DNA from: an uncultured virus (IMG/VR IMGVR_UViG_3300011438_000001)
Lineage: Duplodnaviria > Heunggongvirae > Uroviricota > Caudoviricetes
Strand: one strand, 5' to 3'
DNA: 64,000 nucleotides
Virus record (IMG/VR): IMGVR_UViG_3300011438_000001
In this document: piece after piece, positions 5,030-57,138 of the stretch
Layout of the letters: every line of letters starts with the position of its first letter
Numbering within the stretch: the stretch's first letter is position 1
The notes under the pieces: model-generated
Database searches by the model: none
What the model was told of the DNA's origin: nothing
The model's input: only the letters and a program-made list of their open reading frames with translations
Made by a program: the position numbers and the translations under genes

Positions 5030-5037
5030 TTGAAACC

Positions 5038-5668: not shown

Positions 5669-5702
5669 CGTTATTCTCCCTTCCTACCCGCGAAGCTCAA
5701 GC

Positions 5703-10920: not shown

Positions 10921-10926
10921 AGGATT

Positions 10927-30145: not shown

Positions 30146-30883
30146 ATGAAGTCTATGAAGAATCGCTTGTTGCACTTTGGGACGCTCGGGGGATCGTTAG
30201 TCCTGGTCATCCTGGCCGGCGCCACAATAGGCTGGCGGGCCGCGGAGTGGATCTCCCTTCCAATCCCTGTTGTGCAAGCCCAGGAGTCGTTGCAGTATCT
30301 CCCCGACGGTCCATCCCGCTATGCCTACGACGACCGGTTCTTTTACGATGGGTCGTCGCAGCTGGAATATGAATGCATCGCCCCGTCTTCCGGAAACTAC
30401 CTGACCGTATTTGGCCGGCCGGGAGCCACATCCCAACCAACCTTGCCTGGAGGGGGCGCCGCTCCAACCCTCACCTCCATTACCGTCACGTCCAATGTCG
30501 CGATCGCTATTGTCTCTGGCGGTCATGGGTTTGGGGATGGATCGGTTGGGCATGGTTTAGGAACATTAATTGCCGTGCGGGGGGCAACTGTCTCGCCGGC
30601 GCTCAACTCCGGGGCCAGCTCCTGCCCGGCGTCCACCGGATGCTACAGCATAAGCTCCATCATCTCCGCCGACGCTTTCTCCTTTGCGACCGTAGGCGTT
30701 GCGAATGGTCCTTACACAGAGTCTAGCCTCTATATCTCCACCACCAGCGCCCGCGAAACGCTGGCGATTTGGAGCATTACGAAACACTGGACCGTCGCGG
30801 GGCTGTTTCGACGGAGAGCCCCGGCACAGCAGAATGTCGCGATGAACAAGGTCTGCGCGAACCGGGCGAGTTATTTCCAATAG
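30146..30883 (+). CDS. exported protein with a small beta-barrel (FCCH-like) module
   Basis: N-terminal hydrophobic helix ending VQAQ; ITVTSNVAIA..GHGF..G..IAVRGAT. Confidence 0.6.
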   Translation: MKSMKNRLLHFGTLGGSLVLVILAGATIGWRAAEWISLPIPVVQAQESLQYLPDGPSRYAYDDRFFYDGSSQLEYECIAPSSGNYLTVFGRPGATSQPTLPGGGAAPTLTSITVTSNVAIAIVSGGHGFGDGSVGHGLGTLIAVRGATVSPALNSGASSCPASTGCYSISSIISADAFSFATVGVANGPYTESSLYISTTSARETLAIWSITKHWTVAGLFRRRAPAQQNVAMNKVCANRASYFQ

Positions 30884-30934
30884 GGCTGGGCTAAAGCCCA
30901 CCACCATCCCCATGATCCCCATGAAAAAGGACTT

Positions 30935-31957
30935 ATGAAAATCCTCAAGATCCTCCTAATCCCCCTAGCCATGGGCATGGCTTTTGCCCAACAAAAAACA
31001 GTCGTCGAACCCGACTGCTCCTCTGACTTTGTCTTAGTGGCAGCAGGCTCCTCCCCCACCTTCGACAACAAGCGCATGGGCGCCTGCATGTATTGGGTGG
31101 TGCAATACGAAAACACACCATCCACTGGTGCATTTACTGCCCTGACGATGACCTTCCAATCGGCGCCGGCAACGGGATCGCAAGGTCAGACGGCCGGCAC
31201 CTGGATCACCTTCGCCGGGACCACTCGAGATGGCGCGAATCCAATGACCAGCACGACGTCTACTTATTCAAGCTTCGTCGGCTACAATCCATTTGTTCGC
31301 GTGACTCTAAGTGGAATCACCGGCACCGGCGGGGCGGTTATAGGAAAGATTAGGGGATGGCGCCGCGAATCTGCAGGCGCCTCGGCTGGTGGCGTAGCAG
31401 GCGTCTCTTCCATCAACGGCACGGCTTTGCAAATTGCAGCATCCGCATCAACCGGCGCGGTTGTCTTGAGTATCCCCACAAACCCTACCCTGCCCGGGAC
31501 GACGACCGGAACGTTCTCGGGCAACCTGACCGGCAACGTCACGGGCAACGTCACGGGCGCCGTGACTGGCAATGCTTCAACGGCAACCGCGCTAGCCGCC
31601 AATCCAGCTGATTGCTCCGCCGGCGATGTCGCAATCACCATTGCCGCTTCTGGAGCATTGACCTGCACCCCGCAATATTTTTTTCAAGGGGCCGACACGG
31701 GCGGGGATGACACTTACGTTCTTGCCCCTACAAACTTCCCCGCAGCCTACGTCACCGGACTGATGGTCACGATCCTGGTGACGACAGGAAACACCGGTGG
31801 GGCCACCCTGGATTGCGGCCCTGGTGCAAAAGCCATCAAGCTCCCCGACGGCACCACCGATCCCACGACCGGCGACATCCCCGCTTTGAGCCTTCAACGG
31901 TTTCGTTATGATTCCACGGCCAACGCCGCTGCCGGCGCCTGGATAATGTTTCTCTAA
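30935..31957 (+). CDS. signal-peptide-bearing tail-fibre-like protein
   Basis: MKILKILLIPLAMGMAFA|Q; GNLTGNVTGNVTG..GNASTATALA shaft motif; C-terminal fibre domain. Confidence 0.7.
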   Translation: MKILKILLIPLAMGMAFAQQKTVVEPDCSSDFVLVAAGSSPTFDNKRMGACMYWVVQYENTPSTGAFTALTMTFQSAPATGSQGQTAGTWITFAGTTRDGANPMTSTTSTYSSFVGYNPFVRVTLSGITGTGGAVIGKIRGWRRESAGASAGGVAGVSSINGTALQIAASASTGAVVLSIPTNPTLPGTTTGTFSGNLTGNVTGNVTGAVTGNASTATALAANPADCSAGDVAITIAASGALTCTPQYFFQGADTGGDDTYVLAPTNFPAAYVTGLMVTILVTTGNTGGATLDCGPGAKAIKLPDGTTDPTTGDIPALSLQRFRYDSTANAAAGAWIMFL

Positions 31958-31965
31958 GGAATGTA

Positions 31966-33840
31966 ATGACGATAATCCAACGTCTTCTTTTGCTTCCGCC
32001 CTTGCTCCTGCTCTCCGCGATTCCAATCCTGGCCCAAAATATCTACGTCTACAACCCCTTCACGCGCAAGCTGGACGCCGTCAACCCGGGCGGCGGCACC
32101 CCCATCACCGGCGGCGCCTGCCCCGCTGGTCAATATTCCACCGGCATTCAAGCCCTCGTGGGCGTTCCAACATGCTCTCAAGTGGCATTCACCCAGCTTA
32201 GCGGCTCAGCCACTAAAGCCCAGCAATTCGTCGCGACCGTCTATAACGACCAATCCAATTCCTGGGTCACCGGGACGCAATCCTTCGCCGATGCGATCGC
32301 GATCGTTTTAAAGACCGGCCCAGCCTATGCCCCGACCGTCTCTGGCCATGTCGGCTATGATTCGACGGCCAACGATTACGTCGGCGGGGTCAATGGAACG
32401 TCCTTTAGATTTGCCCGTCGCGCCGCCGGCACTCCTACTGTCGGCCATTGCGTCCAATGGGGCGCTGGCGGAACATTGGACACCGCGGGGGCGATTTGTG
32501 GCTCTGGCGGCGGCGGGGGCGGGATCACGACCCTCAATGGGCTGACTCCGGTGACGCAATTGTTTGCAAAAGTGGACGACACCAACGTCACTTTGAATAT
32601 TGGCTCGGCAACCGCCACGCACACCTTCACCTTGGGCTGGACCGGCCGGCTCTCCGCCGCCCGATCGCATGCCGATGCAGTTTATAATTCGCAGGTCAAT
32701 GCTTACGTTGCCGGGATGAAGCAATCCTTTGCTTCAAATGGCACCAGCGCAGCCCTTCGCCTTGTCCCATTCGCCGGCGCCCCTTCCTCCCTTCAGGAAG
32801 GCGACATGTATTACGACGACGTTTCCCACTCGATGAAGTGCGTCGAGGATGCCGTCCCGACGGCCAAGGATTGCGTCTTTTCTGGAGTGCATGACCCAGG
32901 CGGGAATGGCGTTGTCATCCGCACCTCGCCTACCACCACGACTTTCAATGTCGGGTCGGCCAACAGGATCATGCGCTGGGTGACAACCACGACAGTCGGC
33001 GATTCGAACCTCGGCCAAAATGCCTCGACCGGCGCCCTCGAAAATCTAAAAGGCACCAGCGACCCCGCCACCGTTGTCGCATCCGGCGGCACTCCGGTCT
33101 TCAATCTCTCCACCTCGGATTCCCAAGACCACACCCTGACCTCCAACATCACCTTCACCTTCTCCAATCCGCCCGCGGCCCCGGCCGGCGCCAAGTTCAT
33201 CCGGATGATCTGGCGCCAGAACGGCACCGGCGGCTGGACGATCACTTGTCCTGGAACGGTCTTCAACTGCATCCAACCGGATCCGACGCCAAATGCCGTC
33301 ACCATTCAAATCCTGCAATTTGACGGGACCAATTATGCCGTTATTGCTTCAACGTGCGTTGCTACTTGTGCAAGTGGCTACACCGATTGGTATGGGAAGA
33401 CGACCGGGCATGTCTCGTGGGGGGTCAGGGACGTCACCGGAACGCCGGCGGATGTGGATGTTCCTTCAGCGGATCCTACTGCTGCTGGTTATGTGCTTAA
33501 AGTAACCCAGGCCGGCAGCGGCGCCACGCCTACCCAATTGGGATGGGGGCCGGGGCCGCAGTTCTGCGCCGGCACCGACACCGGCGGGGATGACACTTAT
33601 GTTATTTCTTGCCCCAATTTCCCAGCCGCCTACGCCCTGGATCTAACGATCAGGCTCACCGTTGCCACAGTAAACACTGGTGCGACAACCCTTGATGCCG
33701 GGCTGGGGGCGAAGGCTATCAAATTGGGGGATGGCACGACTGATCCAACTACTGGAGATCTGCCGGCTGGATCCACCAGACTTTTGCGTTACGACCCCGC
33801 GGCCAATTCCGCGGCCGGTGCTTGGCTTTTGAGCTTTTGA
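31966..33840 (+). CDS. signal-peptide-bearing tail-fibre-like protein
   Basis: MTIIQRLLLLPPLLLLSAIPILA|Q; YNPFTRKLD, ITTLNGLT and QNGTGGWTIT fibre motifs; Cys pairs. Confidence 0.7.
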   Translation: MTIIQRLLLLPPLLLLSAIPILAQNIYVYNPFTRKLDAVNPGGGTPITGGACPAGQYSTGIQALVGVPTCSQVAFTQLSGSATKAQQFVATVYNDQSNSWVTGTQSFADAIAIVLKTGPAYAPTVSGHVGYDSTANDYVGGVNGTSFRFARRAAGTPTVGHCVQWGAGGTLDTAGAICGSGGGGGGITTLNGLTPVTQLFAKVDDTNVTLNIGSATATHTFTLGWTGRLSAARSHADAVYNSQVNAYVAGMKQSFASNGTSAALRLVPFAGAPSSLQEGDMYYDDVSHSMKCVEDAVPTAKDCVFSGVHDPGGNGVVIRTSPTTTTFNVGSANRIMRWVTTTTVGDSNLGQNASTGALENLKGTSDPATVVASGGTPVFNLSTSDSQDHTLTSNITFTFSNPPAAPAGAKFIRMIWRQNGTGGWTITCPGTVFNCIQPDPTPNAVTIQILQFDGTNYAVIASTCVATCASGYTDWYGKTTGHVSWGVRDVTGTPADVDVPSADPTAAGYVLKVTQAGSGATPTQLGWGPGPQFCAGTDTGGDDTYVISCPNFPAAYALDLTIRLTVATVNTGATTLDAGLGAKAIKLGDGTTDPTTGDLPAGSTRLLRYDPAANSAAGAWLLSF

Positions 33841-33864
33841 GCTTTTGACATTCTAGAAACGGGA

Positions 33865-34803
33865 ATGAAAATGGGAATGAAAATGAATCTACGACTTATT
33901 CCTTGCCTTCTGATCCTCTGGGCAATGACCTCGCCGGCACTGGCCCAAAAGGCTCGCGTCCAGCGCACCGTCTGGTCTGACGCCACCCAAACGGCCGGCA
34001 CCGGGGACGCCATCACGCTTGCGCCGTCGCCAGCCCTTGCCGCCCTAACTGATCTCGACACGGTCCCGCCAACCCTCACCTGCTTTGTTGCAGAAGCCGT
34101 CAACACCACCACGGTGACGGTGGCGATTAGTGGCCTGACCGCCAAGCCGCTTTACAAAATGAACGGGGCGATCACGACTGCTCTCGCCGCCAACGATCTG
34201 CGCGTCGGCCAAACGGTCTGCTTCGTCCGTTACGTCACCGGCGATGCATTCCAAATGACCACCCAGCTCGGCAACGCGACGGCCGGTGCTTCGACGCCTC
34301 CTCCGATTTACTTTAGGGCTGCTAAGTGCGTCAACGGGTCGGGAGGCCCGGGCATGAACTTGCCGCTCACACTGGCCCCGGCGCCCGATTGCATCCCAGG
34401 CACCAATATCTTGAGTGGTGAACTCACCTTCCCTGATCTGGATGGCGAGTATAGCGTGCAGGATAGCTTCAAGGTTCCGACAGGATCCAGCGGCCCCACG
34501 GCCGTTAACATCAAATGGAGATCCGCCGGCAACAGCGGCAGCGTCGTGTGGCAGATCGCCGGCATTTGTATAGCAGACGACGAAACGATGGATCCGGCGT
34601 TTGCGACGGCGCAAGCCACCACAGATGCCATTAAGGCTACTCCCAATGAGGTAAACGATGCCCAGATTCCTTCACTGACCGTTACGTCATGTGCCGCAGG
34701 TGAGATCTACTTCTTCCGATTCTTCAGGGATAGAAACCATGCCTCGGATTCGATCACCAGCACCACCACCGTGAAGCTGTTGTCGCTAGAGTTTGTCTTC
34801 TAG
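33865..34803 (+). CDS. signal-peptide-bearing fibre/receptor-binding-like protein
   Basis: LIPCLLILWAMTSPALA|Q; N-terminal fibre domain and C-terminal beta-sandwich; start may be 33883. Confidence 0.65.
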   Translation: MKMGMKMNLRLIPCLLILWAMTSPALAQKARVQRTVWSDATQTAGTGDAITLAPSPALAALTDLDTVPPTLTCFVAEAVNTTTVTVAISGLTAKPLYKMNGAITTALAANDLRVGQTVCFVRYVTGDAFQMTTQLGNATAGASTPPPIYFRAAKCVNGSGGPGMNLPLTLAPAPDCIPGTNILSGELTFPDLDGEYSVQDSFKVPTGSSGPTAVNIKWRSAGNSGSVVWQIAGICIADDETMDPAFATAQATTDAIKATPNEVNDAQIPSLTVTSCAAGEIYFFRFFRDRNHASDSITSTTTVKLLSLEFVF

Positions 34804-34814
34804 GAAGGGGGCGC

Positions 34815-35570
34815 ATGTCAATGGGCCAATTAATGTTGAAACAACTTATCGCTGCGGTGCTGTTGATCTGCAACATGAGCACCCCCGCCCACGGTTCCAT
34901 TCAGTTCAACGCCACCGGCGAGCGGTTGTCGGATAGCACTCCAACCAACCTAGACTTAACAGCCTTTACACTGTGCGCCTGGGTTTATGTGGACACGTCA
35001 CCGGCGGTGGCCGGGTACATTTTTAACGTTCAAGTGGGAGCTGGTGGGCACTCGCTGCTCAATATCACATCCACCAATCAAGTGGTTGGAACCAGAACCA
35101 CCAGCAGCACCGCACGCTCTTCCACCTCCACTGGAACATTGACTGCCGCCACTTGGTATTTTGTCTGCTCCACCTATGACGGGGCAGGATCGGCCCCCAA
35201 AGTATTCATCTCCAGCGGCTCTAGCGTCAACACGGTCATGACGGAAGTCTCCTACGCCAGCCAAACAGCCGGCACCGGGACTGATGTCACAACCCCCACC
35301 AACACGCTCATCGGCAATACTTCCGCCTTCAATCGAACCTTCCTTGGGCGGATCGCCGAAGTCTGGGTTTACACGGTGGAGCTGACGACTGCGCAAATGA
35401 ACAGCTTGGCTCGGGGCTACCCAATTGCCGGGGCCGTTTGCCACGTTCCGCTTACAAAGAAAAACACCCCCTCCGCGGATACTAGCGGCTCTGGCAACTC
35501 ATATGCGTGGTCTACCGGCCCCACTTACGGGGAGCATGCGCCGGTTGCGCCAAGCTTTGGCTGGTGGTAG
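34815..35570 (+). CDS. secreted LamG/concanavalin A-like lectin domain protein
   Basis: FTLCAWVY, WYFVCSTYDG, FLGRIAEVWVY..ELT; signal peptide. Confidence 0.8.
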   Translation: MSMGQLMLKQLIAAVLLICNMSTPAHGSIQFNATGERLSDSTPTNLDLTAFTLCAWVYVDTSPAVAGYIFNVQVGAGGHSLLNITSTNQVVGTRTTSSTARSSTSTGTLTAATWYFVCSTYDGAGSAPKVFISSGSSVNTVMTEVSYASQTAGTGTDVTTPTNTLIGNTSAFNRTFLGRIAEVWVYTVELTTAQMNSLARGYPIAGAVCHVPLTKKNTPSADTSGSGNSYAWSTGPTYGEHAPVAPSFGWW

Positions 35571-35596
35571 ATCTCGACAATAGCAAATTGGCAAAC

Positions 35597-38500
35597 ATGA
35601 AAATCCTTCCAGTCCTGGTTCTAATGGCCGTTCCGCTTCCGCTCTCCGCAGTAGATATCTACCTCCGCACTCATGACAACAAAAACTGCCGCGTCATCGG
35701 CGCCACCTTTGCCACTCCCATCGTCGTCACCTGCGCCGCAGCCCACAACATGGCCGCTGGCGACCGTGTCTGGTTCAGCAACATCGCAGGCAACTTCGCC
35801 ACCAACGGCCTGCGTTACGTAGAAATCCCTTCCGCCACGACCTTGCGCCTTTATTCCGACGCTGCCATGACGGTTCCCGTCATAGGAAGCGGCACCTGGA
35901 TCAACGGCAACAACGGCGCAAACGCAGGCGGTTATCAAATCGCCGGCGTAGTCGCGCCCTACACTTTGCAACCCAGCCCGCGCATCAGCTGGAATCCTGC
36001 CGGGGAGATGATTGAATTCGGAGCCTCCGTCGAAAATGGCCTGTTGGTCAACATCTCCGACAGCAGCACAACGGCCACTGCAACCTACAGCCGCGCCCAT
36101 GGGCTCGCCGTCGGCAACCGAATTTGCATCTTCGGCGCCACCGACCCCGACCTGAATTGCTCCAGCACCGCCGGCACCTCCGTCTATTTCACCATCACCG
36201 CAGTCCCATCCCCAACCACCATTCAATGGGTCACCGCATCGGTAACCGACGCCGTCTACAACAACACCAACCTGACCATCTCCTCCTGGGCGCAAGGCGG
36301 CAACCCGGCCTGGATAGCCGTCAACAGCTTCCGGTCCTTCCTGACCGGCGGCTCCCCTCCTGCCTACACTCTTGGCAGGCGGGATTACCAAAAGGAGACT
36401 GCGTCCAGTCTGGCCACCATCTGCTACCTCAACCGTTCCGACACCGAAGCCTGCACCATCGCTGAGCACGCTATCAACAACCCGCAAACCGGCTGGCATA
36501 ACGGCGGATGCGATGAAACCATCGCCAACTGCGGAGACGACGCGGGCGATTACGCCAGCATTGGTGGGGAACACCTTGCCTACATTTATGACTTGATGAA
36601 AAACACCAGCTATCTCGACGCTGGTGAGAAGACCGCCTTTCGCAACGCCATGCTCAACGACCTGGGCGACTCTTGCACCAAGCTCGTCCCGGCCATTGGG
36701 GCCGGTTCTATTTCAGTGGTCGGAAACGAAGCGGTCAATGGTCTCCTGACCGGCACGGGCACCAACTTCCTCACTTCGGTAACGGTGGGATCGATCCTGG
36801 TTGCCCGGTACAATCCCGCCGATCCTATTTCTGCGGCCGAGACGATTCATGTCAACGCGGTGATCGATAATGAGCACCTGACGGTCAACACCTCCACCTC
36901 TGTGCCAAACACGGCTAATCCCATGGGACTTTATTCCATCATCGATCCGCGCACTTCGACCTCCTGCGGCCTCTGGTGGTTTTTGAAGCATCACAACGGC
37001 ACTCCACTCGCTCATCCAATCTACTATCCCCCGGTCGGCGGCTACACCCTTAGCGAGGCAGTTGATCCCATCAACAACATGACCCAGTCGAAGCTGCATA
37101 TCGCGATCCTGTTTGGCCTAGCCATGGCCGATGAGGATCCCCGGGCAGCGATTCTCCTCTCGGACGCCAGCGTCTGGTGGATGGACTACATGCAGCCCAC
37201 TCAGCGCGGCCAATACACGGGCATGACCCAAGGCGGCAATAATTATTACTTTGCCCGTGTGGCTTACATGGCCGTGGATATTCCAACGTTTTGGCGGAAC
37301 GGTTTCGTCGGTGGCCCGGACTGGACTGGCGCCGGTTATATCAAGCCCTTCCAGGACGCATTTAGATTTTTATGGCATCCAAACGCCGCAGTGGGCACGA
37401 GGAATTGGTGCGTCTGGGCATTCGGCGCCGATGCCGACGGAACTGCATGCTGGAACGGCATGGGCGGGCACATGATCAGCTTCCCCGCTAGTTCTAGAAT
37501 TTCTCCAGCGTCGGCAGAGACATCAAAGTTCATGTATTGGTATAACAACGTTGCCGGTTTCAACGCCAGCACCATCAGCGCCGGCAACAGTTACCAAGCC
37601 AACAACATCTTCAAGCGTCAGCCTCCGAATCCCAACGTGGCCACCACCAATTACCTCAGCGACCCCACCCAACGGCTATTTCGTGTGGCGGCATCCGACT
37701 TAACTTGGTGTACGGAAGTGGGCAGCACTATCCCATGCCCGCCAACCGGGTCGTCTGGAATGGCTTATATGTTCAGCCGCTCGGGCTGGACCAGCACAAC
37801 CGACTCCGCGGTTAGTTATTCATCTGCGAGTTTCTATAGCGATCACGACACCCGACGAGCGGGAGATTACTGCATTGTGAAGGGGAATGGACTAATCTGC
37901 GGGGATAGCTATGCGGTCGCGCAATCCCTGGGCAATATGGGCAATAATGCGTCATTTGGCAGGATGAATATGTATTTGTTTGGGGGGCTTACCACCAACC
38001 AGGGGCAGACGGGCGTCATCAACGGCAATGTCCAGGTGCAGCATTACCATGCGCCAATTTTGAGATGGGCCGGCGGGGCAAATAATGATGGCAGGAGCGA
38101 TTCGGCATTTGCTTATGTCCTCTCCAATCTCGCCACCACATGGCAGAGCGGCCTGACCCGTCAGCACCGTGCGTTGCTGCATTACAAACGTTCCGGCAAA
38201 CAAGAGCACGTTATCGTCTGGGATGACGTGCTGCGCACCGCCGCCGGGACGATTGAATATTTCGCCCACTTTGTCCAGGACGGCGAGAGCGGCGAAGGGA
38301 CAACAAGTTGCCCCAGTGGCGACACCACCTGCGCCTCCGTCAACACCTCCAAGCAGGTTAATACTGCCACGGCCGGGTCGGCGCAATCGGTCGTTACCAA
38401 ATTCTTTGCCCCGACCGGCTCGAATATGTTCCTCCAGGTGAACGCCGCGGATGGTTCATATTCCGGCGGTCTCAACCATACCTACCGCGTCACGAGGTGC

Positions 38501-39472
38501 GGCGGAACTTCATCCTGCGGATCCGTCACAGCCCTGGAGACCTTCACTGCCCATCAAGTCTCGTCGGGCGCGGTGACTACGTCTAGCTTGACGGAACTTA
38601 ATCCTTCCGCTGATTGGTCTGGCGCTCAATACACCGACCTGACCTACCTGCATGCGCGGGGCGGCAGCACCTTCACCTCCGTTCCATCATTTACAACATC
38701 CGCCACCACAGACATAATTGCCGCCGGCCTCACCCCAGCCACCTATGAGGTGCGCCTTGGGGGCGTAGCGGTCAGCGGCTGCACCGCCATCGTTGTGATC
38801 ACCGGGGACAACACGATCTACTGCCCAGACGTCGGGGCAGGGGCCATAACCATCGTCCAGAACGGCGCCGGCCCCGATCCCATCATCATCACCACCACAA
38901 CATTGCCCGACGGCACCCAAGCCGTTCCCTATTCGCAAGCATTAACGCTCACCGGCGGGACTCCCGCTTATAATTGCTCCATCATCAGCGGATCGCTGCC
39001 TGTTGGCCTCTCGATTTCCGTCGCAACGATCTCAGGCACACCCTCCAGCTTTGGCCTCTCGTCCTTCACGGTCTCCTGCACGGATAGTTTAGGCGCCACG
39101 CCCGACACTGCAGCCCTGACCATCAACATCATCTCCTCGGGAAGCCCCATCAACATCACTACGACCACCTTGCTGGATGGAACTCAAGGGGCAGCGTATT
39201 CGCAAACGCTCACCATCACCGGCGGGACTCCTCCTTACAATTGCTCGATTATCAGTGGTGCATTGCCCACCGGCCTGTCGATCTCGGTGGCGACGATCAG
39301 CGGAACGCCCAGCAGCGCCGGCTTGTCGTCATTTACGGTCTCCTGCACTGATTCGGTTGCCGGCACGCCCGACACTGCAGCACTGACGATCCTGGTCAAC
39401 CTGCCGGCTGCGTCTGGAGCCGGTGGACTGCGGCGTGGAGGGAAACAAGTCCAGGGCGGGAAGGTCTTCTAA
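35597..39472 (+). CDS. secreted multidomain protein: FCCH-like barrels, heparinase II/III-like lyase region and two putative Ig domains
   Basis: MKILPVLVLMAVPLPLSA signal; SRSGW...DH....GDYCI; two ITTTTL.DGTQ..YSQ.LT.TGGTP.Y repeats. Confidence 0.65.
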   Translation: MKILPVLVLMAVPLPLSAVDIYLRTHDNKNCRVIGATFATPIVVTCAAAHNMAAGDRVWFSNIAGNFATNGLRYVEIPSATTLRLYSDAAMTVPVIGSGTWINGNNGANAGGYQIAGVVAPYTLQPSPRISWNPAGEMIEFGASVENGLLVNISDSSTTATATYSRAHGLAVGNRICIFGATDPDLNCSSTAGTSVYFTITAVPSPTTIQWVTASVTDAVYNNTNLTISSWAQGGNPAWIAVNSFRSFLTGGSPPAYTLGRRDYQKETASSLATICYLNRSDTEACTIAEHAINNPQTGWHNGGCDETIANCGDDAGDYASIGGEHLAYIYDLMKNTSYLDAGEKTAFRNAMLNDLGDSCTKLVPAIGAGSISVVGNEAVNGLLTGTGTNFLTSVTVGSILVARYNPADPISAAETIHVNAVIDNEHLTVNTSTSVPNTANPMGLYSIIDPRTSTSCGLWWFLKHHNGTPLAHPIYYPPVGGYTLSEAVDPINNMTQSKLHIAILFGLAMADEDPRAAILLSDASVWWMDYMQPTQRGQYTGMTQGGNNYYFARVAYMAVDIPTFWRNGFVGGPDWTGAGYIKPFQDAFRFLWHPNAAVGTRNWCVWAFGADADGTACWNGMGGHMISFPASSRISPASAETSKFMYWYNNVAGFNASTISAGNSYQANNIFKRQPPNPNVATTNYLSDPTQRLFRVAASDLTWCTEVGSTIPCPPTGSSGMAYMFSRSGWTSTTDSAVSYSSASFYSDHDTRRAGDYCIVKGNGLICGDSYAVAQSLGNMGNNASFGRMNMYLFGGLTTNQGQTGVINGNVQVQHYHAPILRWAGGANNDGRSDSAFAYVLSNLATTWQSGLTRQHRALLHYKRSGKQEHVIVWDDVLRTAAGTIEYFAHFVQDGESGEGTTSCPSGDTTCASVNTSKQVNTATAGSAQSVVTKFFAPTGSNMFLQVNAADGSYSGGLNHTYRVTRCGGTSSCGSVTALETFTAHQVSSGAVTTSSLTELNPSADWSGAQYTDLTYLHARGGSTFTSVPSFTTSATTDIIAAGLTPATYEVRLGGVAVSGCTAIVVITGDNTIYCPDVGAGAITIVQNGAGPDPIIITTTTLPDGTQAVPYSQALTLTGGTPAYNCSIISGSLPVGLSISVATISGTPSSFGLSSFTVSCTDSLGATPDTAALTINIISSGSPINITTTTLLDGTQGAAYSQTLTITGGTPPYNCSIISGALPTGLSISVATISGTPSSAGLSSFTVSCTDSVAGTPDTAALTILVNLPAASGAGGLRRGGKQVQGGKVF

Positions 39473-39475
39473 AGG

Positions 39476-42022
39476 ATGGCCAGAAGGCGAACGGCACGGC
39501 AGACTCCAGCGACTGGTCTAGCCGTCCCGCAGGAGCAACTCTTTGAAGCCGCGGCGCAGGCGCACCAGCTTCGCCAATCGACTTTGGAAGCATTGGGAGG
39601 TGGGGGCTCCGCCGGCCCCAATGATGGATCTACTCCTGCTTATGTTCAAGCTCCAGAAATTGGAGCCCCCAAATGGGAAGCCCTCCCCTGCCGCGCCGTT
39701 TATCTCGCCATCAAGAACCACGGCCGCTATTCGTTGCAACACGTTGCGGCGCAGCAAATCGCCAACGACGCATTGACCGCTTATATCTATGGCCAATCCT
39801 GGGCGGATCCTCTTTACCGTCCCAGCCCGCAGATGCGCGTTGCATATAGAAAGGAATTCGAAATTGGCATGGGCGGGGCAAAGGGCGGGGCGAAGACGTT
39901 CCTCCTGCCGATGTGGATGACCTGGGGCAATCCATGGTTGCCGGAATATGAGGACGGCCGGTTGATCCTCCATCGCCGGTCCTATCTCTACCATCCCAAT
40001 TTTATTGGCCTGATCCTGCGCCGCAACCAAGTCGATATGGTGGAGATCATTCAAAAGTCCAAGGACATCTTTGGGCTCTTTGGAGGTTATTATTCCACCG
40101 CAGACTCCACCTACCGTTTTCCTAATGGCGGCATGGTCGGGTTCGGGCATATTGCGGATAAGAATTCTTACAAAAAATACTTTGGCCGCAACATCACCAA
40201 ACTCGCCATCGATGAATTGGTGCAGGTTGAGGAATTGAAAACCTATGAGCAGATCAAATCCTGCGTCCGTTCAGCCTATCCAGACCTTCGCGCCCAAATT
40301 CTCTGCACCTTCAACCCCAAGGGCGGGCCGGGCGTTGCCTGGGTCTTTGATTACTACATAGAGCCTAAACAGAGGCATCCTACGGAAAAGGATGTGTTGA
40401 TCCCCATTCTAGGGAGCGATGGGTTGCCTATAAAAGCATTCGACGGGGCCGGCCGGGCGACTTATCCAGAGCCATCCATCAAGGCCAAGGTCGATATGAA
40501 GATGGTCTATGCACGGCTTGGCGTGGAGGCGCCGGCCGGGACCAGCGATTCACTAGATAGATGCTTTATTCCAGCGTTTGTCACCGACAATCCATATCTT
40601 CTAGATGATCCCACCTACGTCAAATCCCTTGCCTCTCTAGACGAGGACGATAGAGATGCGTATTTATTTGGCAAATGGGAGATGGGCGGCGGGGCTTACT
40701 TTGCGAATTTTCGTCCCATGCGTTTAGAACATGAACCAGAGAATGCTTGTCATGTTGTGAAGGGACTAGGGCAATTCCATGTCCCTGGTGGGAGGCTTGA
40801 TTCCCTAGGCCGGGAGATTGACCTAACCGACAAGAAGATCTTGTCTCGACCTATCTCCTTCTGGTGGGATCGCGACATCGGCGGGGACTGGGGATTCGGC
40901 CATGAGGCAGCTTTCTATTGGGGGGCGCAGAATCCATCCACCCATCAAATCGACGTTTATCGCGAGAGGGTCTTTCATGAGACCATGCCGGAATCGGTCG
41001 GCTTTGAAGTCGGGAGAGAATCTGCGCAGGAGTTGAGAGAGCATCCTGCCCATCGCATGAATCTTTGGCTAGGTGGAGACGTTGAGGAGAATAGATCAGG
41101 TGGTGGCCGGCAGATCATCGAGCTGATCGCCGCGGGGATCCGCCAAGCGATCGGGCCTAACATGGTCCACATGCCGGATTATGTAGCGGCGCAAATTGCG
41201 CGAGCCCAGCGCGGCCGGGAGATGGAACGTGATTTTGCCTCAGCTGCGCAGATGCCCAATGGGCAGGAGGCTTCACCAATTGATTGGCTGGATCCAGAAT
41301 CGCTTCGCCAAGTGAAGTTGCAACGGGCTAGTGGAATCATCATCCGTCGTGCGCTAAGCGACCGGGTTATTGGGTGGCAATTGTGCCGATCCATGATGCG
41401 ATGGGCTCCGATTGTTCCATTTGATTCGCAGCAGTTCGATGCCAACGTTGCCCTCTCTACGCTCTTTAGTGGGATGGGATCTGGCGGGGGATCCTACGAA
41501 TTCAACCAGTATATGAACGAGATGGCCAAGCAGCGTCTGGAGGTTCTTCCACGACTGCAGATCTGGGATAACTGCGTGCGGTTGATTCAAGCCATTCCTC
41601 TAGCTAAGAAGGATGAGCGGCATCCGGACGTCGTTGACAAGACGCATTTCCGCGGGATGGACCTTCTAGACGCTTGGCGATACTTATTGATGGGGATGAA
41701 TGAGAGAAAGGTCGGGGAGAAGGAGCCGTTGGAGGTGGCGATCGAGCGGGAATTTGAACTCAACCTGCATAAATCTGAGCAAAGAACCGGCAAGGGAATG
41801 GACATCAACCAGATGATCCAGATGCGAGCCTTCATCGAGAGCGACATGCGCCGGCAGCGGGGGAAGGACAAAGGGATGCCGGTGGAGAATTTGATTGCCG
41901 CCAGGGGGAATGGCGCTGGAGCTACGGCAGTCAGCCGGCAGCTGGCGGCGCGAGCCCGCGTGCAGCAGATGTTGAAGGGGCAGTTGGGGCCGAATCTACA
42001 ATCCGACTGGCGGCGGGGTTAG
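39476..42022 (+). CDS. terL: terminase large subunit
   Basis: GGAKGGAKT Walker A, AIDE Walker B, TFNP.GG.G..WV, nuclease GGDWGF and DLLDAWRY. Confidence 0.9.
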   Translation: MARRRTARQTPATGLAVPQEQLFEAAAQAHQLRQSTLEALGGGGSAGPNDGSTPAYVQAPEIGAPKWEALPCRAVYLAIKNHGRYSLQHVAAQQIANDALTAYIYGQSWADPLYRPSPQMRVAYRKEFEIGMGGAKGGAKTFLLPMWMTWGNPWLPEYEDGRLILHRRSYLYHPNFIGLILRRNQVDMVEIIQKSKDIFGLFGGYYSTADSTYRFPNGGMVGFGHIADKNSYKKYFGRNITKLAIDELVQVEELKTYEQIKSCVRSAYPDLRAQILCTFNPKGGPGVAWVFDYYIEPKQRHPTEKDVLIPILGSDGLPIKAFDGAGRATYPEPSIKAKVDMKMVYARLGVEAPAGTSDSLDRCFIPAFVTDNPYLLDDPTYVKSLASLDEDDRDAYLFGKWEMGGGAYFANFRPMRLEHEPENACHVVKGLGQFHVPGGRLDSLGREIDLTDKKILSRPISFWWDRDIGGDWGFGHEAAFYWGAQNPSTHQIDVYRERVFHETMPESVGFEVGRESAQELREHPAHRMNLWLGGDVEENRSGGGRQIIELIAAGIRQAIGPNMVHMPDYVAAQIARAQRGREMERDFASAAQMPNGQEASPIDWLDPESLRQVKLQRASGIIIRRALSDRVIGWQLCRSMMRWAPIVPFDSQQFDANVALSTLFSGMGSGGGSYEFNQYMNEMAKQRLEVLPRLQIWDNCVRLIQAIPLAKKDERHPDVVDKTHFRGMDLLDAWRYLLMGMNERKVGEKEPLEVAIEREFELNLHKSEQRTGKGMDINQMIQMRAFIESDMRRQRGKDKGMPVENLIAARGNGAGATAVSRQLAARARVQQMLKGQLGPNLQSDWRRG

Positions 42023-45266: not shown

Positions 45267-45524
45267 ATGTCTCAATTGAACATCAACACCGTCACTGGAG
45301 AATCCCCCGAAATCGCCGCCTTCGTCGATGACATCTTCGAATATCACAAGTGGGATGACGCCAAAGTCGCCAAGGGCAAGCTCGTGCGCGAGGCTCTTGC
45401 GCATGCCGTGAAGATCATCATCGCTAACGTTCCGCCTAGTCCTGATCGATCTGTTGCAATTCGCAAGATTCGTGACGCTCGAATGGACTGCAATTCGGCG
45501 ATCACGCATGATGGGAAATTCTAA
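45267..45524 (+). CDS. Acb2/Tad1-like hairpin domain protein (candidate cyclic-nucleotide sponge)
   Basis: IFEYH...VRE......I...VPPSPDRSVAIRKIRDARMDCNSAI matches the family pattern. Confidence 0.65.
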   Translation: MSQLNINTVTGESPEIAAFVDDIFEYHKWDDAKVAKGKLVREALAHAVKIIIANVPPSPDRSVAIRKIRDARMDCNSAITHDGKF

Positions 45525-47585
45525 ATGATTCGTCCACTCTCCTTCTCCTTTGCCTCGCTATTGGATCCTGCTCCTGTTGCTGGTGGTGGCGCAGGGGCGC
45601 CGGCTGAACCCACTCGTATGGGCACCCCTGGCGCAGACCAGTCCATCCCAACCGGCGGGACCGTCGGTGGCAACATCGCCAACGCAATCAAACAAGGGAT
45701 GGCGATGGTTCAAGCCGTAGGAGCAGCTGCTGCTCCAGCCCCTGCAGGGATCGCCGGGATGGATGGAACGACTCCAGTTGCGCTTGCCCCAACTCCTGCT
45801 GCTGTACCTGCGACGGTGCAGCCTCCTCTTGGCGCCCCAAATCTCACTCCTGCCGGGGCGCCGGCCGTGCCTGCCCAACCCGCTGCCGTCCCTCCTGGAA
45901 CTGGTCAGGGATCTCCTTCCTCGGGCCAGCCTCCAGCCGGCAGCGGAGTGGCAGGTTCGGAGCCGCCGGCGGCACCTGCTGGTGTCTCAACCGCACCTCC
46001 TGCTACTCCACCAGCCCCTGAGCCTTTTGTTGGATTGACCGACGATGAATTGCTGGCGGCTGCATCGACTCCGATCGGAACTCCGCCAGCCTCCGGGGAA
46101 GCACCCGCGCCAGTACCAGGAGCCGACCCCGCGACGGCTGCTGCCACTGCTGGCGCCTCGGCCCCCGGAGCTGCACCGACCATCCAACCCGCCACCTTCA
46201 CCGGCCTTTCCCCGGACGAAAATACGCAGCTCAACAACCTCGTTCAACGGGTCGTCACCGCGGGCTCCCCCACCGACACTGGAATTCTCGAGACGATGCT
46301 CCTGCGCTCGTCCCGCGGCCAGCGCATGCTGGAATCTTTCAAGACGATCCAGGCTCTGGAAGCCCCGCCCAACCCCGATGGCTCAGGTGGGCTCGGCTAC
46401 GCTCCAGCCCCGGATGAAATCCGCCAATGGCAAGCTGACCATGACTATACCGAAAGATTAGTCGATCGATTCAACACCGGCACGGCAGAATCCACGCAGG
46501 AATTCTGGCAGATGATCCTCGGCCGGGATCCCGAATCCACCTTGTCGCGAAACCCAGGCGCCCGTGCGGTTTTCGAGAACCTTCCCCAACTGGCTGAACG
46601 TTCCCCAGCTCTCCGCCAAGCGATCGCCGCACCTATCGAGCACCAACTTATCTCCACCATGCACGACTTTGTGCAACGGCTTCCTGGTGGGGCTATCGGC
46701 ACCCCAGAGAATGAAGCCAAGGAAGCAATGATCTGGGCGATCAACGCTCTCAACTCTCGAGTCTTTGGCCGGCAGGAAATTGCAAGGGAGGCTTTTTATG
46801 CGGCGGGTCCGATGCTGCCCAAGATGGGTACAAATCGCAGCGTGGGAGCTGGAGCTGCTTCTAATGCACCAGCAGCCCCAAATGGTGTTCCCAATGGTGC
46901 TGCAACCGAAGATCCCAACTCCGAAGTCGCCCGGCTCCGCGCCCGGGTCGAAGCCGCTGATCGCGTTGCTTTCAATAACGCCGTCGCCCGCATCGCCGTT
47001 CCATTTGAAACCGCCCAAGCCAATCTTACCGCCACTGTAGTCTCGAAAGCATTAGGAGCCCTACGTGCCGTTCGCGATCCTGGCGACTTTGCCCTCATCC
47101 AAGACAAATTCCTGGCAGAGCTTCAACCTTCCGTTGAATCCCTCCCGGCCTACCAAGCCCTCGATCGCGACATCGCTAAGGCCTTGCAGCAGAACGCCAG
47201 ATCTGGTAAACTTCCCGTGACTGTCGAGCAATCGTTGCTCAAACGGTATGGTCGAATCGTGCAATCGGTGATTGCGCGAAAGGCTGACGGGTTCGTCAAG
47301 CAGCATTTTCGGCCGTTCAATGGCCAGCAGGCGCAGCCGGTGGGTTCTCCTGCTTCAGTGAATGGTGGAAATGCAGCCGCAGCCCCGATGCCGGCGGCAA
47401 TGGGTCTGCCAAGCCAGGGGGCTGGGCGACCTGGGGTTGGTGTTGCTCCAACTGGACAACCAGGGCAGCAGCAGCAAACTGCACCGCCTCCTAATCCTTC
47501 AGGCGCCAACCGTCCAGGCACGACCGCTTCCAGGATCACTGATCGAATTAAGGCGGCAACATCGGGCCAATTTGCCCAAGGTTAG
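45525..47585 (+). CDS. capsid scaffolding protein (putative)
   Basis: directly before the MCP; Pro/Ala-rich disordered ends around a helical core. Confidence 0.65.
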   Translation: MIRPLSFSFASLLDPAPVAGGGAGAPAEPTRMGTPGADQSIPTGGTVGGNIANAIKQGMAMVQAVGAAAAPAPAGIAGMDGTTPVALAPTPAAVPATVQPPLGAPNLTPAGAPAVPAQPAAVPPGTGQGSPSSGQPPAGSGVAGSEPPAAPAGVSTAPPATPPAPEPFVGLTDDELLAAASTPIGTPPASGEAPAPVPGADPATAAATAGASAPGAAPTIQPATFTGLSPDENTQLNNLVQRVVTAGSPTDTGILETMLLRSSRGQRMLESFKTIQALEAPPNPDGSGGLGYAPAPDEIRQWQADHDYTERLVDRFNTGTAESTQEFWQMILGRDPESTLSRNPGARAVFENLPQLAERSPALRQAIAAPIEHQLISTMHDFVQRLPGGAIGTPENEAKEAMIWAINALNSRVFGRQEIAREAFYAAGPMLPKMGTNRSVGAGAASNAPAAPNGVPNGAATEDPNSEVARLRARVEAADRVAFNNAVARIAVPFETAQANLTATVVSKALGALRAVRDPGDFALIQDKFLAELQPSVESLPAYQALDRDIAKALQQNARSGKLPVTVEQSLLKRYGRIVQSVIARKADGFVKQHFRPFNGQQAQPVGSPASVNGGNAAAAPMPAAMGLPSQGAGRPGVGVAPTGQPGQQQQTAPPPNPSGANRPGTTASRITDRIKAATSGQFAQG

Positions 47586-47665: not shown

Positions 47666-49060
47666 ATGGCCACAGACGTCAGAGACGTTCTTGCATCTCA
47701 AATCGAGTATGTCAACAAGAACATCCAGCATATGTATGAGGAAGGCTCGCAGGTTTGCGACCTAGTCCTTCAGAACCTCCCCGCCCACACCATCAACCGC
47801 CGGCTCGGCCGCTTGATCGTCCAGCAATATCGCGGCGGCAACTGGGGCAAGATGTCGGCCAACGGGACCGGCAACTACGGCCAGGGCACCGGCAACAAGC
47901 AATATGAGCTGAAGTTCGGCGCCTTCTATGCCAAGCGCAACTTCCGCTTCAACGATGAAGTTCGCGACACCACGCAGGGCAACCCGCAAGCGGTTGTTGA
48001 CATCGTCGCAGAGCAGATCGGCGGCGCGATGGCGGATTGCCTCATCGACGACGACGTGGCGTTTCATCAAAGCGGAACTGGCGTCATCTCCTCCCCCACC
48101 AGCCTCCCGGCCGCAACCGGCGCGGGCACTGCTTCGACCACCATCACCTTTGCCGGCGCCACCGACTACTGGGGGATTTCGATGTTCCGCCAGGGCATGT
48201 GCATCGAGTTCTGGTCGCAGGATCTGACAACGAAACGGACCACCTACGCCGATGCGACATTGCCGCTGATCATCGAAGACATCGACTATGCCAACAAGGC
48301 GATCAAGCTGAACCAAGCGGTCACGATCAACCCGGCTGGTTCGCAGGACGTCGCTGTTATTCCAGACATGGATGCGTATGGTCCCTCCACTCTGACCATC
48401 GGCTCCAGCACTTGGCCCGACAACACCGTCGCCGGCGGCTTGTCCGGTGACACCTTCCGCCATGGCATGGATTATGCCCTGTCGGTCAACACGTCGGATT
48501 ACTACCTGGGGCAGCTCAAATCCTCGAAACTTCAACTCCTCTCCAACCGGGTCAATGCCAGCACCGCCTCCCTTTCCTGGAGCCACGGTCGCCAACTGGA
48601 CGATCAGATCCTTACTCGTTCCAGCGACGACAAGCCGGATCATATCGGTCTCGCCAGCCTCGCCCAGGTGAAGGCCATTGAAGATCTCGGCGTCAACCTC
48701 ACCGAATATCGCCTGCAAGGCGGCGGTCTCCAAACCCCCGCCGACCTGATCGCCTACGATCGCAAGTACGGCACGCCCGTGCAATATTGCGGCAAGGCGA
48801 TCTACCGCGACAAACGCCTGAAGAAGGACCGGATCAACTACCTCGACAAGACCACTTGGTTCCGCGCCCAGTTCTTTGAGCGTGGCTTCCTCGACGGTGG
48901 CGACTCGGGCAAGTATCTGTTCCGCGGCCGCATTCCTTCGACGGCTCGCCTCGCAACGTGGCTCGAGTTCATCATCCGCGACTGCTTCGACTTCGTCTGC
49001 AGCTCGCCGATGCGCAACGGCTACATCGATAGCCTTGCGGTTGAAGCCGCTTATGTCTAG
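47666..49060 (+). CDS. major capsid protein
   Basis: 464 aa after the scaffold; strong AAGGA RBS; strongly biased codon use; followed by a terminator. Confidence 0.8.
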   Translation: MATDVRDVLASQIEYVNKNIQHMYEEGSQVCDLVLQNLPAHTINRRLGRLIVQQYRGGNWGKMSANGTGNYGQGTGNKQYELKFGAFYAKRNFRFNDEVRDTTQGNPQAVVDIVAEQIGGAMADCLIDDDVAFHQSGTGVISSPTSLPAATGAGTASTTITFAGATDYWGISMFRQGMCIEFWSQDLTTKRTTYADATLPLIIEDIDYANKAIKLNQAVTINPAGSQDVAVIPDMDAYGPSTLTIGSSTWPDNTVAGGLSGDTFRHGMDYALSVNTSDYYLGQLKSSKLQLLSNRVNASTASLSWSHGRQLDDQILTRSSDDKPDHIGLASLAQVKAIEDLGVNLTEYRLQGGGLQTPADLIAYDRKYGTPVQYCGKAIYRDKRLKKDRINYLDKTTWFRAQFFERGFLDGGDSGKYLFRGRIPSTARLATWLEFIIRDCFDFVCSSPMRNGYIDSLAVEAAYV

Positions 49061-53535: not shown

Positions 53536-54267
53536 ATGAAGTTCAGCAAGCGTCTCCTGACGGTTCTAGCCGTCAGCATTCTCTCTTCTTTGGCGTCCTT
53601 GCCTCTGCAAGCCACCGCTCTCTCAACTCTCATCCCCGGTGGCGTCATCACTGACGGCCCCATCACCTATTCCGACTTCACCTTCACCCGCACCTGCCAG
53701 CCGGCCTTGACAGGTCTATGTGCGCCCCTGGACGCTTCCGGCCTGGATGTTTCGCTGATCGCGGGTGGGATCCAGATCGCCGGCGGAATTTCCGTCACCT
53801 CCCCCACTGGCACTCTAGTGGTCGGTGATTTTCTAATCGGCTTCACCTACACCGGTCCTTCGCCGGTCACCGACGTCGGCCTCGCCTTCAACGGCTCCAC
53901 CCAAGGCAACGGATCCTTCGCCCAGGTTGTCGAATCGATCATCGTCAACCAAACCGTCGAGGCGCAATTGGAGGTGAACGCGCCGCTTGGTCCATGGTCA
54001 ACCACCCTGCATCTGGACGATCCCCTCAAGTCATTCGACGTGATCAAGGATATTCAATTGGGCGCCTTTGAGTCCAATGGGTTCCTGGCGCTCTCGACAA
54101 TCTCGTTCGTTCATCAGTACTACTTCGCCCCAACCATCGACCCCCGGTGCGTCGGCGACCAGTGTCCGGATGTCCCAGAGCCCAGCACTTTTGCGCTGAT
54201 CGGCCTGGGGTTGGTCGGCGCCGGCGTCTTTAGACTGGCTCGACATAACGATTCCGTTGGGAGATAA
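53536..54267 (+). CDS. secreted PEP-CTERM sorting-domain protein
   Basis: signal peptide ending LQA; C-terminal VPEPSTFALIGLGLVGAGVFRLAR; GGAGG RBS. Confidence 0.88.
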   Translation: MKFSKRLLTVLAVSILSSLASLPLQATALSTLIPGGVITDGPITYSDFTFTRTCQPALTGLCAPLDASGLDVSLIAGGIQIAGGISVTSPTGTLVVGDFLIGFTYTGPSPVTDVGLAFNGSTQGNGSFAQVVESIIVNQTVEAQLEVNAPLGPWSTTLHLDDPLKSFDVIKDIQLGAFESNGFLALSTISFVHQYYFAPTIDPRCVGDQCPDVPEPSTFALIGLGLVGAGVFRLARHNDSVGR

Positions 54268-56571: not shown

Positions 56572-57138
56572 ATGCCAGTTCTTGACCTAGCCCGCGAGAT
56601 TCGGCAGCTGGCGGTTGATCCGGGGGCTGGCGAGCCCCGCGGCAATGTGGATGGCCTGGGCAATGGCAACGGCCGGCAGGGTCCACGTCCCCCTGCCGGC
56701 AACGGAGCATCTAATGGCCCCCCTGCCGGGCAGCGCCACGCCAACGATCCCAACTCGGTTCGCATCCTGCTCTTTCAAGCCCTGCGCAAGATGCAAGCCT
56801 GGGCGAATGCTCCAGAGGCTGTTGTCGCAGCAACAACCGCAACTGCCGCCCCAACTCCATCCACCGTCCAAGTCGTCCAGGACGTCTTCCTGGTTGCCTC
56901 AACCCTCACCACGGTCGTGCCGGCCGCAGCCGCAACCGAAGGCGCATCCCTTGATGTCTTTGTACGCCAGCCCCTGACCGGCACCCCAGGATCGGTGGCG
57001 TTTAATAGTGGATTTAGATTGACGCCATCCAACATTGCGCAGACCTTGGGAAGCTGGAGCGTCTTCAGCTTTGTCGGCAAGGCAGATGGGAAGTGGTGGC
57101 TGAGGACCAACATCCGGACGGGAGTTTTTTATTCATGA
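56572..57138 (+). CDS. putative tail fibre docking/adapter protein
   Basis: between nozzle and fibre; fibre-like C-terminal domain. Confidence 0.5.
   Translation: MPVLDLAREIRQLAVDPGAGEPRGNVDGLGNGNGRQGPRPPAGNGASNGPPAGQRHANDPNSVRILLFQALRKMQAWANAPEAVVAATTATAAPTPSTVQVVQDVFLVASTLTTVVPAAAATEGASLDVFVRQPLTGTPGSVAFNSGFRLTPSNIAQTLGSWSVFSFVGKADGKWWLRTNIRTGVFYS

Follow-up and report, generated by a model that had tools for sequence, protein, structure and literature searches.

Six leader-bearing genes upstream of the terminase

The 64,000-nt sequence studied here (IMG/VR record IMGVR_UViG_3300011438_000001; "the window" denotes this whole stretch of DNA) comes from an uncultured soil phage, the host of which is probably an acidobacterium (Acidobacteria) of the Terriglobia type. 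On its plus strand, between 30146 and 39472, lie six co-oriented, tightly packed open reading frames (ORF1 to ORF6), directly upstream of the gene for the large terminase subunit. The intergenic gaps are 51, 8, 24, 11 and 26 nt, all six ORFs start with ATG, and most are preceded by a purine-rich stretch. Since the terminase gene follows ORF6 directly, after a gap of 3 nt, the cluster would form the head of the late (structural) operon. An earlier note on this DNA, made from the letters alone, described six consecutive ORFs with Sec-type leaders at these positions, and the coordinates, ATG starts and tight packing agree with its account.

ORF1 (30146–30883, with a further in-frame ATG at 30155) encodes a 245-residue protein with a long hydrophobic N-terminus, the body of which matched no Pfam, PHROG or NCBIfam family and gave no usable match in Atlas. 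ORF2 (30935–31957; 340 residues) opens with the leader MKILKILLIPLAMGMAFA/QQ, the slash here and below marking the predicted cleavage site, and is related through its C-terminal 146 residues (46.6% identity) to ORF3 (31966–33840; 624 residues), which also carries a leader and contains a conserved fibre repeat (...TQLFAKVDDTNVTL...HTFTLGWTG...). Together with ORF4 (33865–34803; 312 residues; leader ...SPALA/QK), these proteins share a fibre-type domain. The earlier note had picked out its core motif, NTGA.TL..G.GAK.I, which a hidden Markov model (HMM) built from homologs resolves as a real domain of 78 residues at positions 252–327 of ORF2 (6e-30), 536–610 of ORF3 (6e-29) and 43–121 of ORF4 (1e-9).

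The last two genes encode proteins of a different make-up. ORF5 (34815–35570; 251 residues) begins with the leader ...STPAHG/S and contains a Laminin_G_3 or ConA-like lectin domain at residues 43–194 (PF13385; E 7.1e-13, 49.4 bits against a cut-off of 27.6), so that the LamG domain noticed earlier stands above threshold. ORF6 (35597–39472; 1291 residues) comprises a leader (MKILPVLVLMAVPLPLSA/VD), a large body, two immunoglobulin (Ig)-like He_PIG domains at about 1095–1270 and a Gly/Arg-rich tail. Whole-protein Pfam scans returned no He_PIG match; when the last 197 residues (1095–1291) were scanned alone, the domain was found over two stretches (PF05345; E 3.8e-15, 56.5 bits against 24), which locates the Ig domains of the earlier note at the C-terminus. 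A sequence search of the PDB with ORF6 found no relative apart from a 0.19 match to a decoration protein across the Ig region.

The N-terminal region and large body of ORF6 resemble heparinase II/III-like proteins by Atlas language-model features only: the match is to Hepar_II_III_C clusters at 0.91, a range (0.9 or above) that shuffled proteins reach in 4–10% of cases by the tool's own figures, and all ten of the best family-carrying matches are to Hepar_II_III_C or its clan. No Pfam lyase family matched the body, even at E values up to 1. The description "lyase-like" therefore stands by feature similarity but not by family membership, and we treat ORF6 as a candidate polysaccharide lyase for which the Atlas match is a lead only.

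Leader peptides and their conservation

Leaders were called with a home-made rule-based scorer that considers the charge of the n-region, an uncharged h-region with a hydrophobic core, and the −3/−1 rule. It flagged all six cluster ORFs and three other proteins of the window, and residues at −3 and −1 are small in all six leaders. The earlier note had expected no leaders on the major capsid, portal or nozzle proteins, and none of the 12 other structural-arm proteins tested was flagged. As controls, 5 of 1894 internal 60-residue windows of related proteins were flagged, and among ORFs of at least 100 residues in phage phiM6 the scorer picked 1 of 44, a small protein adjoining the endolysin, versus 9 of 54 in the window. 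Ordinary phages encode 0–2 signal peptides per genome in the set tabulated in PMC5723332 (Table 3). The earlier count of six was right for the cluster but too low for the window, which holds at least nine or ten leader-bearing proteins. For ORF1, for which cleavage at VQA/Q had been proposed, a signal anchor is as likely as a cleaved leader.

An exhaustive HMMER search with ORF3 gave 800 relatives at E values up to 0.001, the best 153 of which were analysed. A leader was recognised by eye in 13 of the 17 ORF3 homologs found first, and by rule in 92 of the 153 at the recorded start (93 when an internal Met start was allowed). The 60 unflagged homologs comprise about 14 with a leader by eye, about 8 that are N-terminally cut and 38 that are cleanly leaderless. 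Leaders persist where the mature parts have diverged to 25–45% identity. Among ORF6 homologs, the full-length P0025 (44–45% identity) retains its leader, as does the homolog on IMG/VR contig L035; P0023 (62% identity) is N-terminally cut. The check proposed at the outset, whether homologs keep the signal peptide, thus comes out positively for both ORF3 and ORF6.

Could these N-termini be something other than export signals? They might be mis-called starts, chance resemblances, or uncleaved segments that lie at the cytoplasmic face of the membrane or are plugged into the particle. The ORF1 segment is long enough for a membrane helix, the n-region of ORF3 has a single Arg, and the calls come from a rule rather than a trained predictor. 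Set against this are the control rates (5/1894 and 1/44), the small −3 and −1 residues shared by the six proteins, the conservation of leaders at 25–45% identity of the mature parts, and the even cysteine counts tied to the leader (below). Starts downstream of the hydrophobic segments would leave large empty gaps for which the tight gene packing has no room; together with the ATG starts and the control rates, this led us to reject downstream starts and chance. We regard an origin of these segments unconnected with export as very improbable, and the predicted leaders as genuine and conserved, far beyond chance.

Paired cysteines accompany the leaders

The mature parts of ORF1 to ORF6 contain 4, 5, 12, 6, 3 and 26 cysteines, respectively, mostly as near-neighbour pairs (the 12 of ORF3 as 6 such pairs), in keeping with the many paired cysteines noted earlier. 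The number is even in seven of nine leader proteins of the window (the six, a 1092-residue fibre-like protein and two PEP-CTERM proteins, described below), ORF2 and ORF5 being odd. Across the ORF3 family, the mature cysteine count is even in 83 of 93 leader-bearing homologs (binomial p 9e-16), none of which is cysteine-free, versus 24 of the 38 clean leaderless ones (Fisher p 9e-4). Cysteines with a cysteine neighbour within 30 residues amount to 724 of 900 in leader-bearing versus 103 of 180 in leaderless homologs, and a CxAG...C loop occurs in 27 of 92 and 0 of 38, respectively.

A similar pattern is seen for ORF6, where 16 cysteines are invariant, as 8 neighbour pairs, in comparison with P0025 and P0023 at 44–62% identity. 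The large leaderless proteins encoded upstream of the ORF6 homolog on L035 (404, 853 and 1403 residues) have no cysteine at all. In the window itself, the leaderless protein encoded at 45525–47585 (686 residues) has none and that at 54340–56565 (741 residues) has two. Proteins that fold in an oxidising compartment are marked by just this coupling of a leader with paired cysteines. Export and oxidative folding of the cluster proteins, as the earlier note had suggested, are well supported in silico by the conserved leaders, the cysteine parity and the invariant ORF6 pairs.

Fibre modules and the genomic setting of homologs

Turning to the nature of the exported proteins, we compared ORF3 relatives with PHROG families. 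Among 31 clean leaderless relatives scanned, 20 matched tail-fibre families, with phrog_4900 ("tail protein") accounting for 14, and the N-termini of several belong to classical tail-fibre families. Of 37 leader-bearing relatives, 9 matched any PHROG family, in every case tail fibre, spike or minor tail; the lower rate may be explained by the construction of PHROGs from cultured phages. Leaderless fibres with the phrog_4900 or phrog_28171 repeat (for example P0226 and P0235) share the 78-residue domain (NtGAaTLnvnGlGAkaI) with ORF2–ORF4 and the repeat with ORF3. They differ in having a cytoplasmic-type N-terminus, matching phrog_1858, 6859, 2617 and 1833, in place of a leader, and they have fewer cysteines with no parity bias.

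The conserved ORF3 motifs were confirmed at 20 loci in 2.9 million viral contigs and at 4 loci in a set of 185,579 species represented by a single genome apiece, the patterns used for the genome scan being one residue longer than those for the viral contigs. Three of the four genome loci are on Acidobacteriota contigs of metagenome-assembled genomes (MAGs) by title. Besides the window copy, 19 viral loci were available: six have a leader by rule (L002, L003, L005, L006, L008, L010), two more by eye (L009, L020), nine have none, and two lack a matched ORF. A first metagenome scan gave no relatives and a second gave three weak ones. Searches of cultured phages by tblastn with ORF3 and with the putative portal protein returned zero matches.

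Several of these homologs sit where a fibre gene would be expected. On the siphovirus-like L005, leader-bearing homologs come after the genes for the major tail, tape-measure, tail-assembly and tail-tip proteins, and on the low-G+C metagenome contig L038 a homolog that is leader-like by eye follows the tape-measure genes in the siphovirus fibre slot. The P2-like myovirus L020 encodes a leader-bearing homolog after its baseplate genes and a leaderless tail fibre. On the podovirus-like L006, three leader-bearing homologs come after an ejection protein and a 1403-residue phrog_9854 protein and before a holin-like gene and an endolysin. L002 carries a leader-bearing homolog directly upstream of terminase, portal and capsid genes, as in the window. 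As a separate observation, the L020 gene after the fibre homolog (9742–11001) starts with a lipoprotein-type leader (…LAAA/C) and precedes the endolysin gene.

For ORF6, two IMG/VR contigs, L035 (67 kb) and L036, encode a homolog with 60% identity over 1101 residues. On L035 this protein has a leader and 22 cysteines, lacks the Ig repeats, and ends the structural operon, after the 404-, 853- and 1403-residue (phrog_9854) proteins and a leader-bearing protein of 617 residues; a PEP-CTERM homolog and then a divergent polymerase arm follow. Only 2 of 21 ORFs, the ORF6 and PEP-CTERM homologs, are shared between L035 and the window. The presence of the ORF6 module in an otherwise unrelated phage points to exchange, as expected of host-range modules.

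These comparisons bear on whether the cluster is host-derived cargo, that is, secreted carbohydrate-active enzymes (CAZymes) and adhesins that help the infected cell to feed and have no connection with phage structure. Soil prophages do carry CAZymes with signal peptides (5% of 64,678; PMC13507307), the He_PIG repeats of ORF6 are 40–55% identical to many bacterial surface proteins, and one of the window's PEP-CTERM proteins has a counterpart with 36% identity in a Terriglobia-class genome. Outside the Ig repeats, though, ORF6 has only phage-contig relatives (P0023, P0025, L035 and L036); the ORF3 family is found at 20 viral loci versus 4 genome loci; the cluster has the same G+C content (0.58–0.60) as the remainder of the phage; and fibre modules are present. 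We consider such cargo quite unlikely, and rejected ordinary host secreted proteins on the fibre-module homology and the distribution of loci. The evidence supports assigning ORF2–ORF4 to phage fibre families rather than to ordinary families of the host.

Leader-bearing proteins annotated as virion parts in cultured phages

Two cultured phages show a comparable trait. The record of Cellulophaga phage phi18:3 (NC_021794, Pachyviridae) labels gp085, gp086 and gp087 virion, structural or tail proteins and gives "experimental MS/MS proteomics analysis" as the basis (MS/MS, tandem mass spectrometry). The source paper behind this annotation is reportedly Holmfeldt et al. 2013. All three proteins have a leader by rule, versus none of nine other MS-annotated proteins; we found no remark on these leaders in print. 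As in the window, large leader proteins are encoded consecutively (three genes) on one strand upstream of the large terminase gene, here with lysis genes as well, and one family member is annotated as pectate lyase in sister phages, which recalls the lyase-like ORF6. The differences are that phi18:3 shows zero sequence similarity to the window proteins, that its host belongs to Bacteroidota, and that gp085–gp087 contain few cysteines (0, 1 and 3) and hence no disulfide signature. Homologs of gp086 were found in 24 Cellulophaga records and one Maribacter phage record, where they carry the label structural protein or pectate lyase. Residues 1–118 of gp086 (gene at 4545–6902), including the leader, are 82–83% identical in phi10:1, phi19:1, phi19:3 and phi13:2, and the remainder differs, a pattern of a conserved attachment end or shared module.

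The acidobacterium Tunturiibacter is host to the cultured podophage Tunturi 1 (PP887698), the gp12–gp17 block of which carries leaders: by rule in gp12, gp14 ("tail spike") and gp17 ("virion structural"), and by eye in gp13 and gp16. The large proteins of this block contain 10–32 cysteines, those annotated as tail spike and virion structural protein 20–32. Tunturi 1 thus resembles the window phage in its probable host phylum and in having a run of large, late, Cys-rich leader proteins; it differs in that its leader block follows a tail gene, whereas the window cluster precedes the terminase, and in that the 50 kb compared showed no similarity to window proteins. The terms "signal peptide", "tail fiber" and "tailspike" do not occur in the main text of the Tunturi 1 paper (PMC11924767).

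Known exported phage proteins are of other kinds. Lambda Lom and Bor and T5 Llp are accessory signal-peptide proteins of late operons, encoded among or beside coliphage tail genes; each is a small lipoprotein or outer-membrane protein that has no relation to fibres and comes from a single gene. The window, in contrast, has at least six large fibre-, lectin- or enzyme-type proteins, and no integrase gene was found within the 64 kb. Sec-exported or SAR endolysins, such as Lys44 of Oenococcus phage fOg44, are likewise late phage proteins with a bacterial signal peptide, and they accumulate outside the cytoplasm before lysis (PMC6116005). They differ from the present proteins in being lysis enzymes, neither fibre-type or receptor-binding proteins nor virion parts. 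Our literature search found no description of leader-bearing tail fibres or Sec-secreted receptor-binding proteins.

Further exported proteins of the window

Four other proteins of the window have leaders or leader-like N-termini. The first (57135–60413, plus strand; 1092 residues), in the tail part of the operon, is a seventh leader-bearing fibre-like protein with internal repeats and the leader MILRLLLALSIVFVIQA/QT. Its 10 cysteines form 5 pairs, either C-x3-C or terminal; a 45-residue stretch is 63–67% identical to cyanomyovirus tail-fibre or structural proteins, and there is a weak match to phrog_1348 (tail fiber). Its start overlaps by 4 nt the stop of a leaderless 188-residue ORF (56572–57138), and no relatives were found in IMG/VR. 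PDB sequence searches with this protein, with the 54340–56565 product and with the ORF3 alignment gave no relative. Directly after the 1092-residue fibre, on the same strand, lies a small leader-like protein (60476–60937; 153 residues from an internal Met; 2 cysteines), with a leader by eye that the rule did not flag.

The remaining two, which the earlier note did not list, combine a leader with a PEP-CTERM tail, a feature of none of the cluster's six proteins. One (53536–54267, plus strand; 243 residues; 4 cysteines) matches PF07589 (6.2e-7, 29.7 bits against 20.7) and TIGR02595 (19.7 against 16); its homolog on L035 and L036 (43.5% identity, leader and PEP-CTERM kept) lies directly after the ORF6 homolog. 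The other (10927–11505, minus strand, in the replication arm; 192 residues; 2 cysteines) is PEP-CTERM-like: the motif is present and the Pfam score, 17.5 bits, is below the cut-off of 20.7. Of 301 genomes from the Terriglobia-type class, one encodes a counterpart of the PEP-CTERM protein that we label PEP2 (36% identity, E 2e-15), and eight more have PEP2 matches at E values up to 0.001 that mainly cover the PEP-CTERM tail. The literature search yielded no account of phage PEP-CTERM proteins. Taken together, the leader and PEP-CTERM proteins of the window would support a diderm, exosortase-bearing host, and some of the exported phage proteins are probably aimed at the cell surface.

A proposed two-compartment route to the virion

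In textbook accounts of tailed-phage assembly, every part of the virion is made in the reducing cytoplasm. Fibres and tailspikes are classically the last parts to be added, as in T4 and P22, and their addition is possible in vitro. We propose that the cluster encodes a set of Sec-exported, disulfide-stabilised host-recognition proteins that dock to the virion around lysis, a reading to which we give a probability of about 0.5. The set would comprise three fibre proteins (ORF2–ORF4), a LamG lectin (ORF5), a putative lyase with Ig domains (ORF6) and an anchored or exported ORF1. Late in infection, these proteins would be threaded through SecYEG and cleaved by signal peptidase I; folding and oligomerisation would then take place in the oxidising periplasm, aided by the host disulfide machinery. 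Once the inner membrane is breached at lysis, they would meet fibre-less particles from the cytoplasm and dock to them. Some members might never join the particle and act instead on the envelope or slime, the likeliest candidates being ORF6, ORF5 and the two PEP-CTERM proteins.

The last step is where a different account competes, in which the exported proteins are not virion parts at all and act on the envelope or slime of the infected cell, by cutting exopolysaccharide from within for the escape of progeny, by binding or masking receptors, which would save progeny from being lost on debris or would block superinfection, or by decorating the surface, the alternative given in the earlier note. 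A leader removes a protein from the compartment in which particles are built, and exported endolysins, lambda Lom and Bor, and T5 Llp are precedents for phage proteins of this fate. The lyase-like ORF6, the lectin ORF5, the two PEP-CTERM proteins (which point to surface or slime targeting), the position of the ORF6 homolog directly before a PEP-CTERM homolog on L035 and L036, and the placement of the cluster outside the tail part of the operon would all fit. Three of the six proteins are nevertheless made of tail-fibre modules, leader-bearing homologs occupy fibre slots in siphovirus, myovirus and podovirus contigs, and the leader proteins of phi18:3 are annotated as MS/MS-detected in virions. 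Receptor masking by fibre copies, moreover, would need leaderless paralogs to serve the particle. When 21 window proteins were compared all against all by BLAST, ORF2 and ORF3 were the only related pair, and Pfam, PHROG and NCBIfam scans turned up no fibre-like protein lacking a leader within the 64 kb. Docking after lysis is the more parsimonious account, and a purely non-virion role for the set is its main, less probable rival. A mixed outcome, part virion and part surface, is plausible.

Several points weigh against docking to the virion. We infer virion joining only from fibre-domain homology, from homologs in fibre slots and by analogy with the MS/MS annotation of phi18:3, which could itself reflect a co-purifying protein. 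PHROG and Pfam scans, limited by the sensitivity of sequence profiles, found no virion-docking domain behind the six leaders. The cluster lies upstream of the terminase gene rather than among the tail genes of the operon. The two PEP-CTERM proteins, as exosortase substrates presumably destined for the surface or slime, mean that leader proteins here need not all be virion parts. Bodies of the LamG and lyase-like kinds are also characteristic of enzymes secreted by hosts, and the He_PIG domains of ORF6 are common to hundreds of large bacterial surface proteins. The N-terminus of ORF1 may as well be a signal anchor as a cleaved leader, because its uncharged segment spans about 23 residues and the VQA/Q site lies about 40 residues in. 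The home-made nature of the leader scorer also counts on this side. The host assignment is soft, since the Acidobacteriota MAG contigs that make up three of the four genome matches may be binned phage contigs. Finally, in Tunturi 4 (1–23775), a siphovirus that shares its host genus with Tunturi 1, none of 14 head and tail proteins checked has a leader, which suggests that export is lineage-specific rather than host-imposed.

More broadly, and tentatively, many tailed phages of Acidobacteriota or other diderms may build their particles in two compartments, heads and tails in the cytoplasm and the host-recognition set (fibres, lectins and depolymerases) via Sec, with disulfide bonding in the periplasm and attachment at lysis; the window would be one example. 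Should export and oxidative folding of receptor-binding proteins prove routine, the understanding of the last assembly step and of the timing of lysis would change, and fibres and depolymerases of soil phages should be expressed periplasmically, with their disulfides. The recognition of phage structural genes in metagenomes would change as well, because a signal peptide could then not be taken as a sign of a "host" or "auxiliary" gene. One paper has cited the lack of signal peptides in support of a phage origin of fibre-type proteins (PMC6199706, in its Discussion). The question is testable now, given that the cultured Tunturi 1 (Tunturiibacter) and phi18:3 (Cellulophaga) show the same trait.

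Genome organisation and other features of the window

The whole 64 kb reads as a single tailed-phage genome with two divergent arms, and the phage is predicted to be virulent and, judging by its relatives, short-tailed. No tRNA gene was found in the window, and a promoter and terminator scan of 27.5–42.6 kb gave counts not above those of shuffled sequences. In the minus-strand arm (1–30 kb) lie genes for a family A DNA polymerase with a fused uracil-DNA-glycosylase (UDG)-like domain, PIF1-like and UvrD-like helicases, a GP88-family protein and a D5/DUF5906 primase-helicase. The polymerase (1198–4683, minus strand) is a protein of 1161 residues in which the UDG-superfamily domain occupies residues 56–199. 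The plus-strand arm runs from about 30.1 kb through the six genes, the large terminase gene and further genes for large proteins to the end of the window.

The large terminase subunit (39476–42022, plus strand) matches phrog_979 (3.9e-27) and phrog_2 (9.7e-21), with Pfam Terminase_3 slightly below the cut-off. Its closest cultured counterparts, from Aeromonas phage 1233, Sinorhizobium phage phiM6 and the Roseobacter CRP phages, are about 24–28% identical, and the only relative in IMG/VR was the window's own second copy. A 25.7 kb IMG/VR contig is 100% identical across the cluster; it represents the same phage and provides no independent evidence. The product of 47666–49060 (plus strand) is a weak match to podovirus-type capsid proteins (NCBIfam, E 2.5e-4, below cut-off).

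Two small genes of the plus-strand arm deserve mention. The product of 61524–62018, which combines a membrane helix at the N-terminus with a long coiled coil and an end rich in proline, has the layout of an i-spanin and, together with a membrane protein encoded at about 60931–61542, may mark a lysis cassette, near which no endolysin family was found. Between the gene for the putative portal protein and the next large gene lies an 85-residue ORF (45267–45524, plus strand) with a weak match to the Acb2/Tad1 hairpin domain (E 0.0011, 19.5 bits against a cut-off of 27), the product of which could be a relative of anti-CBASS or anti-Thoeris sponge proteins.

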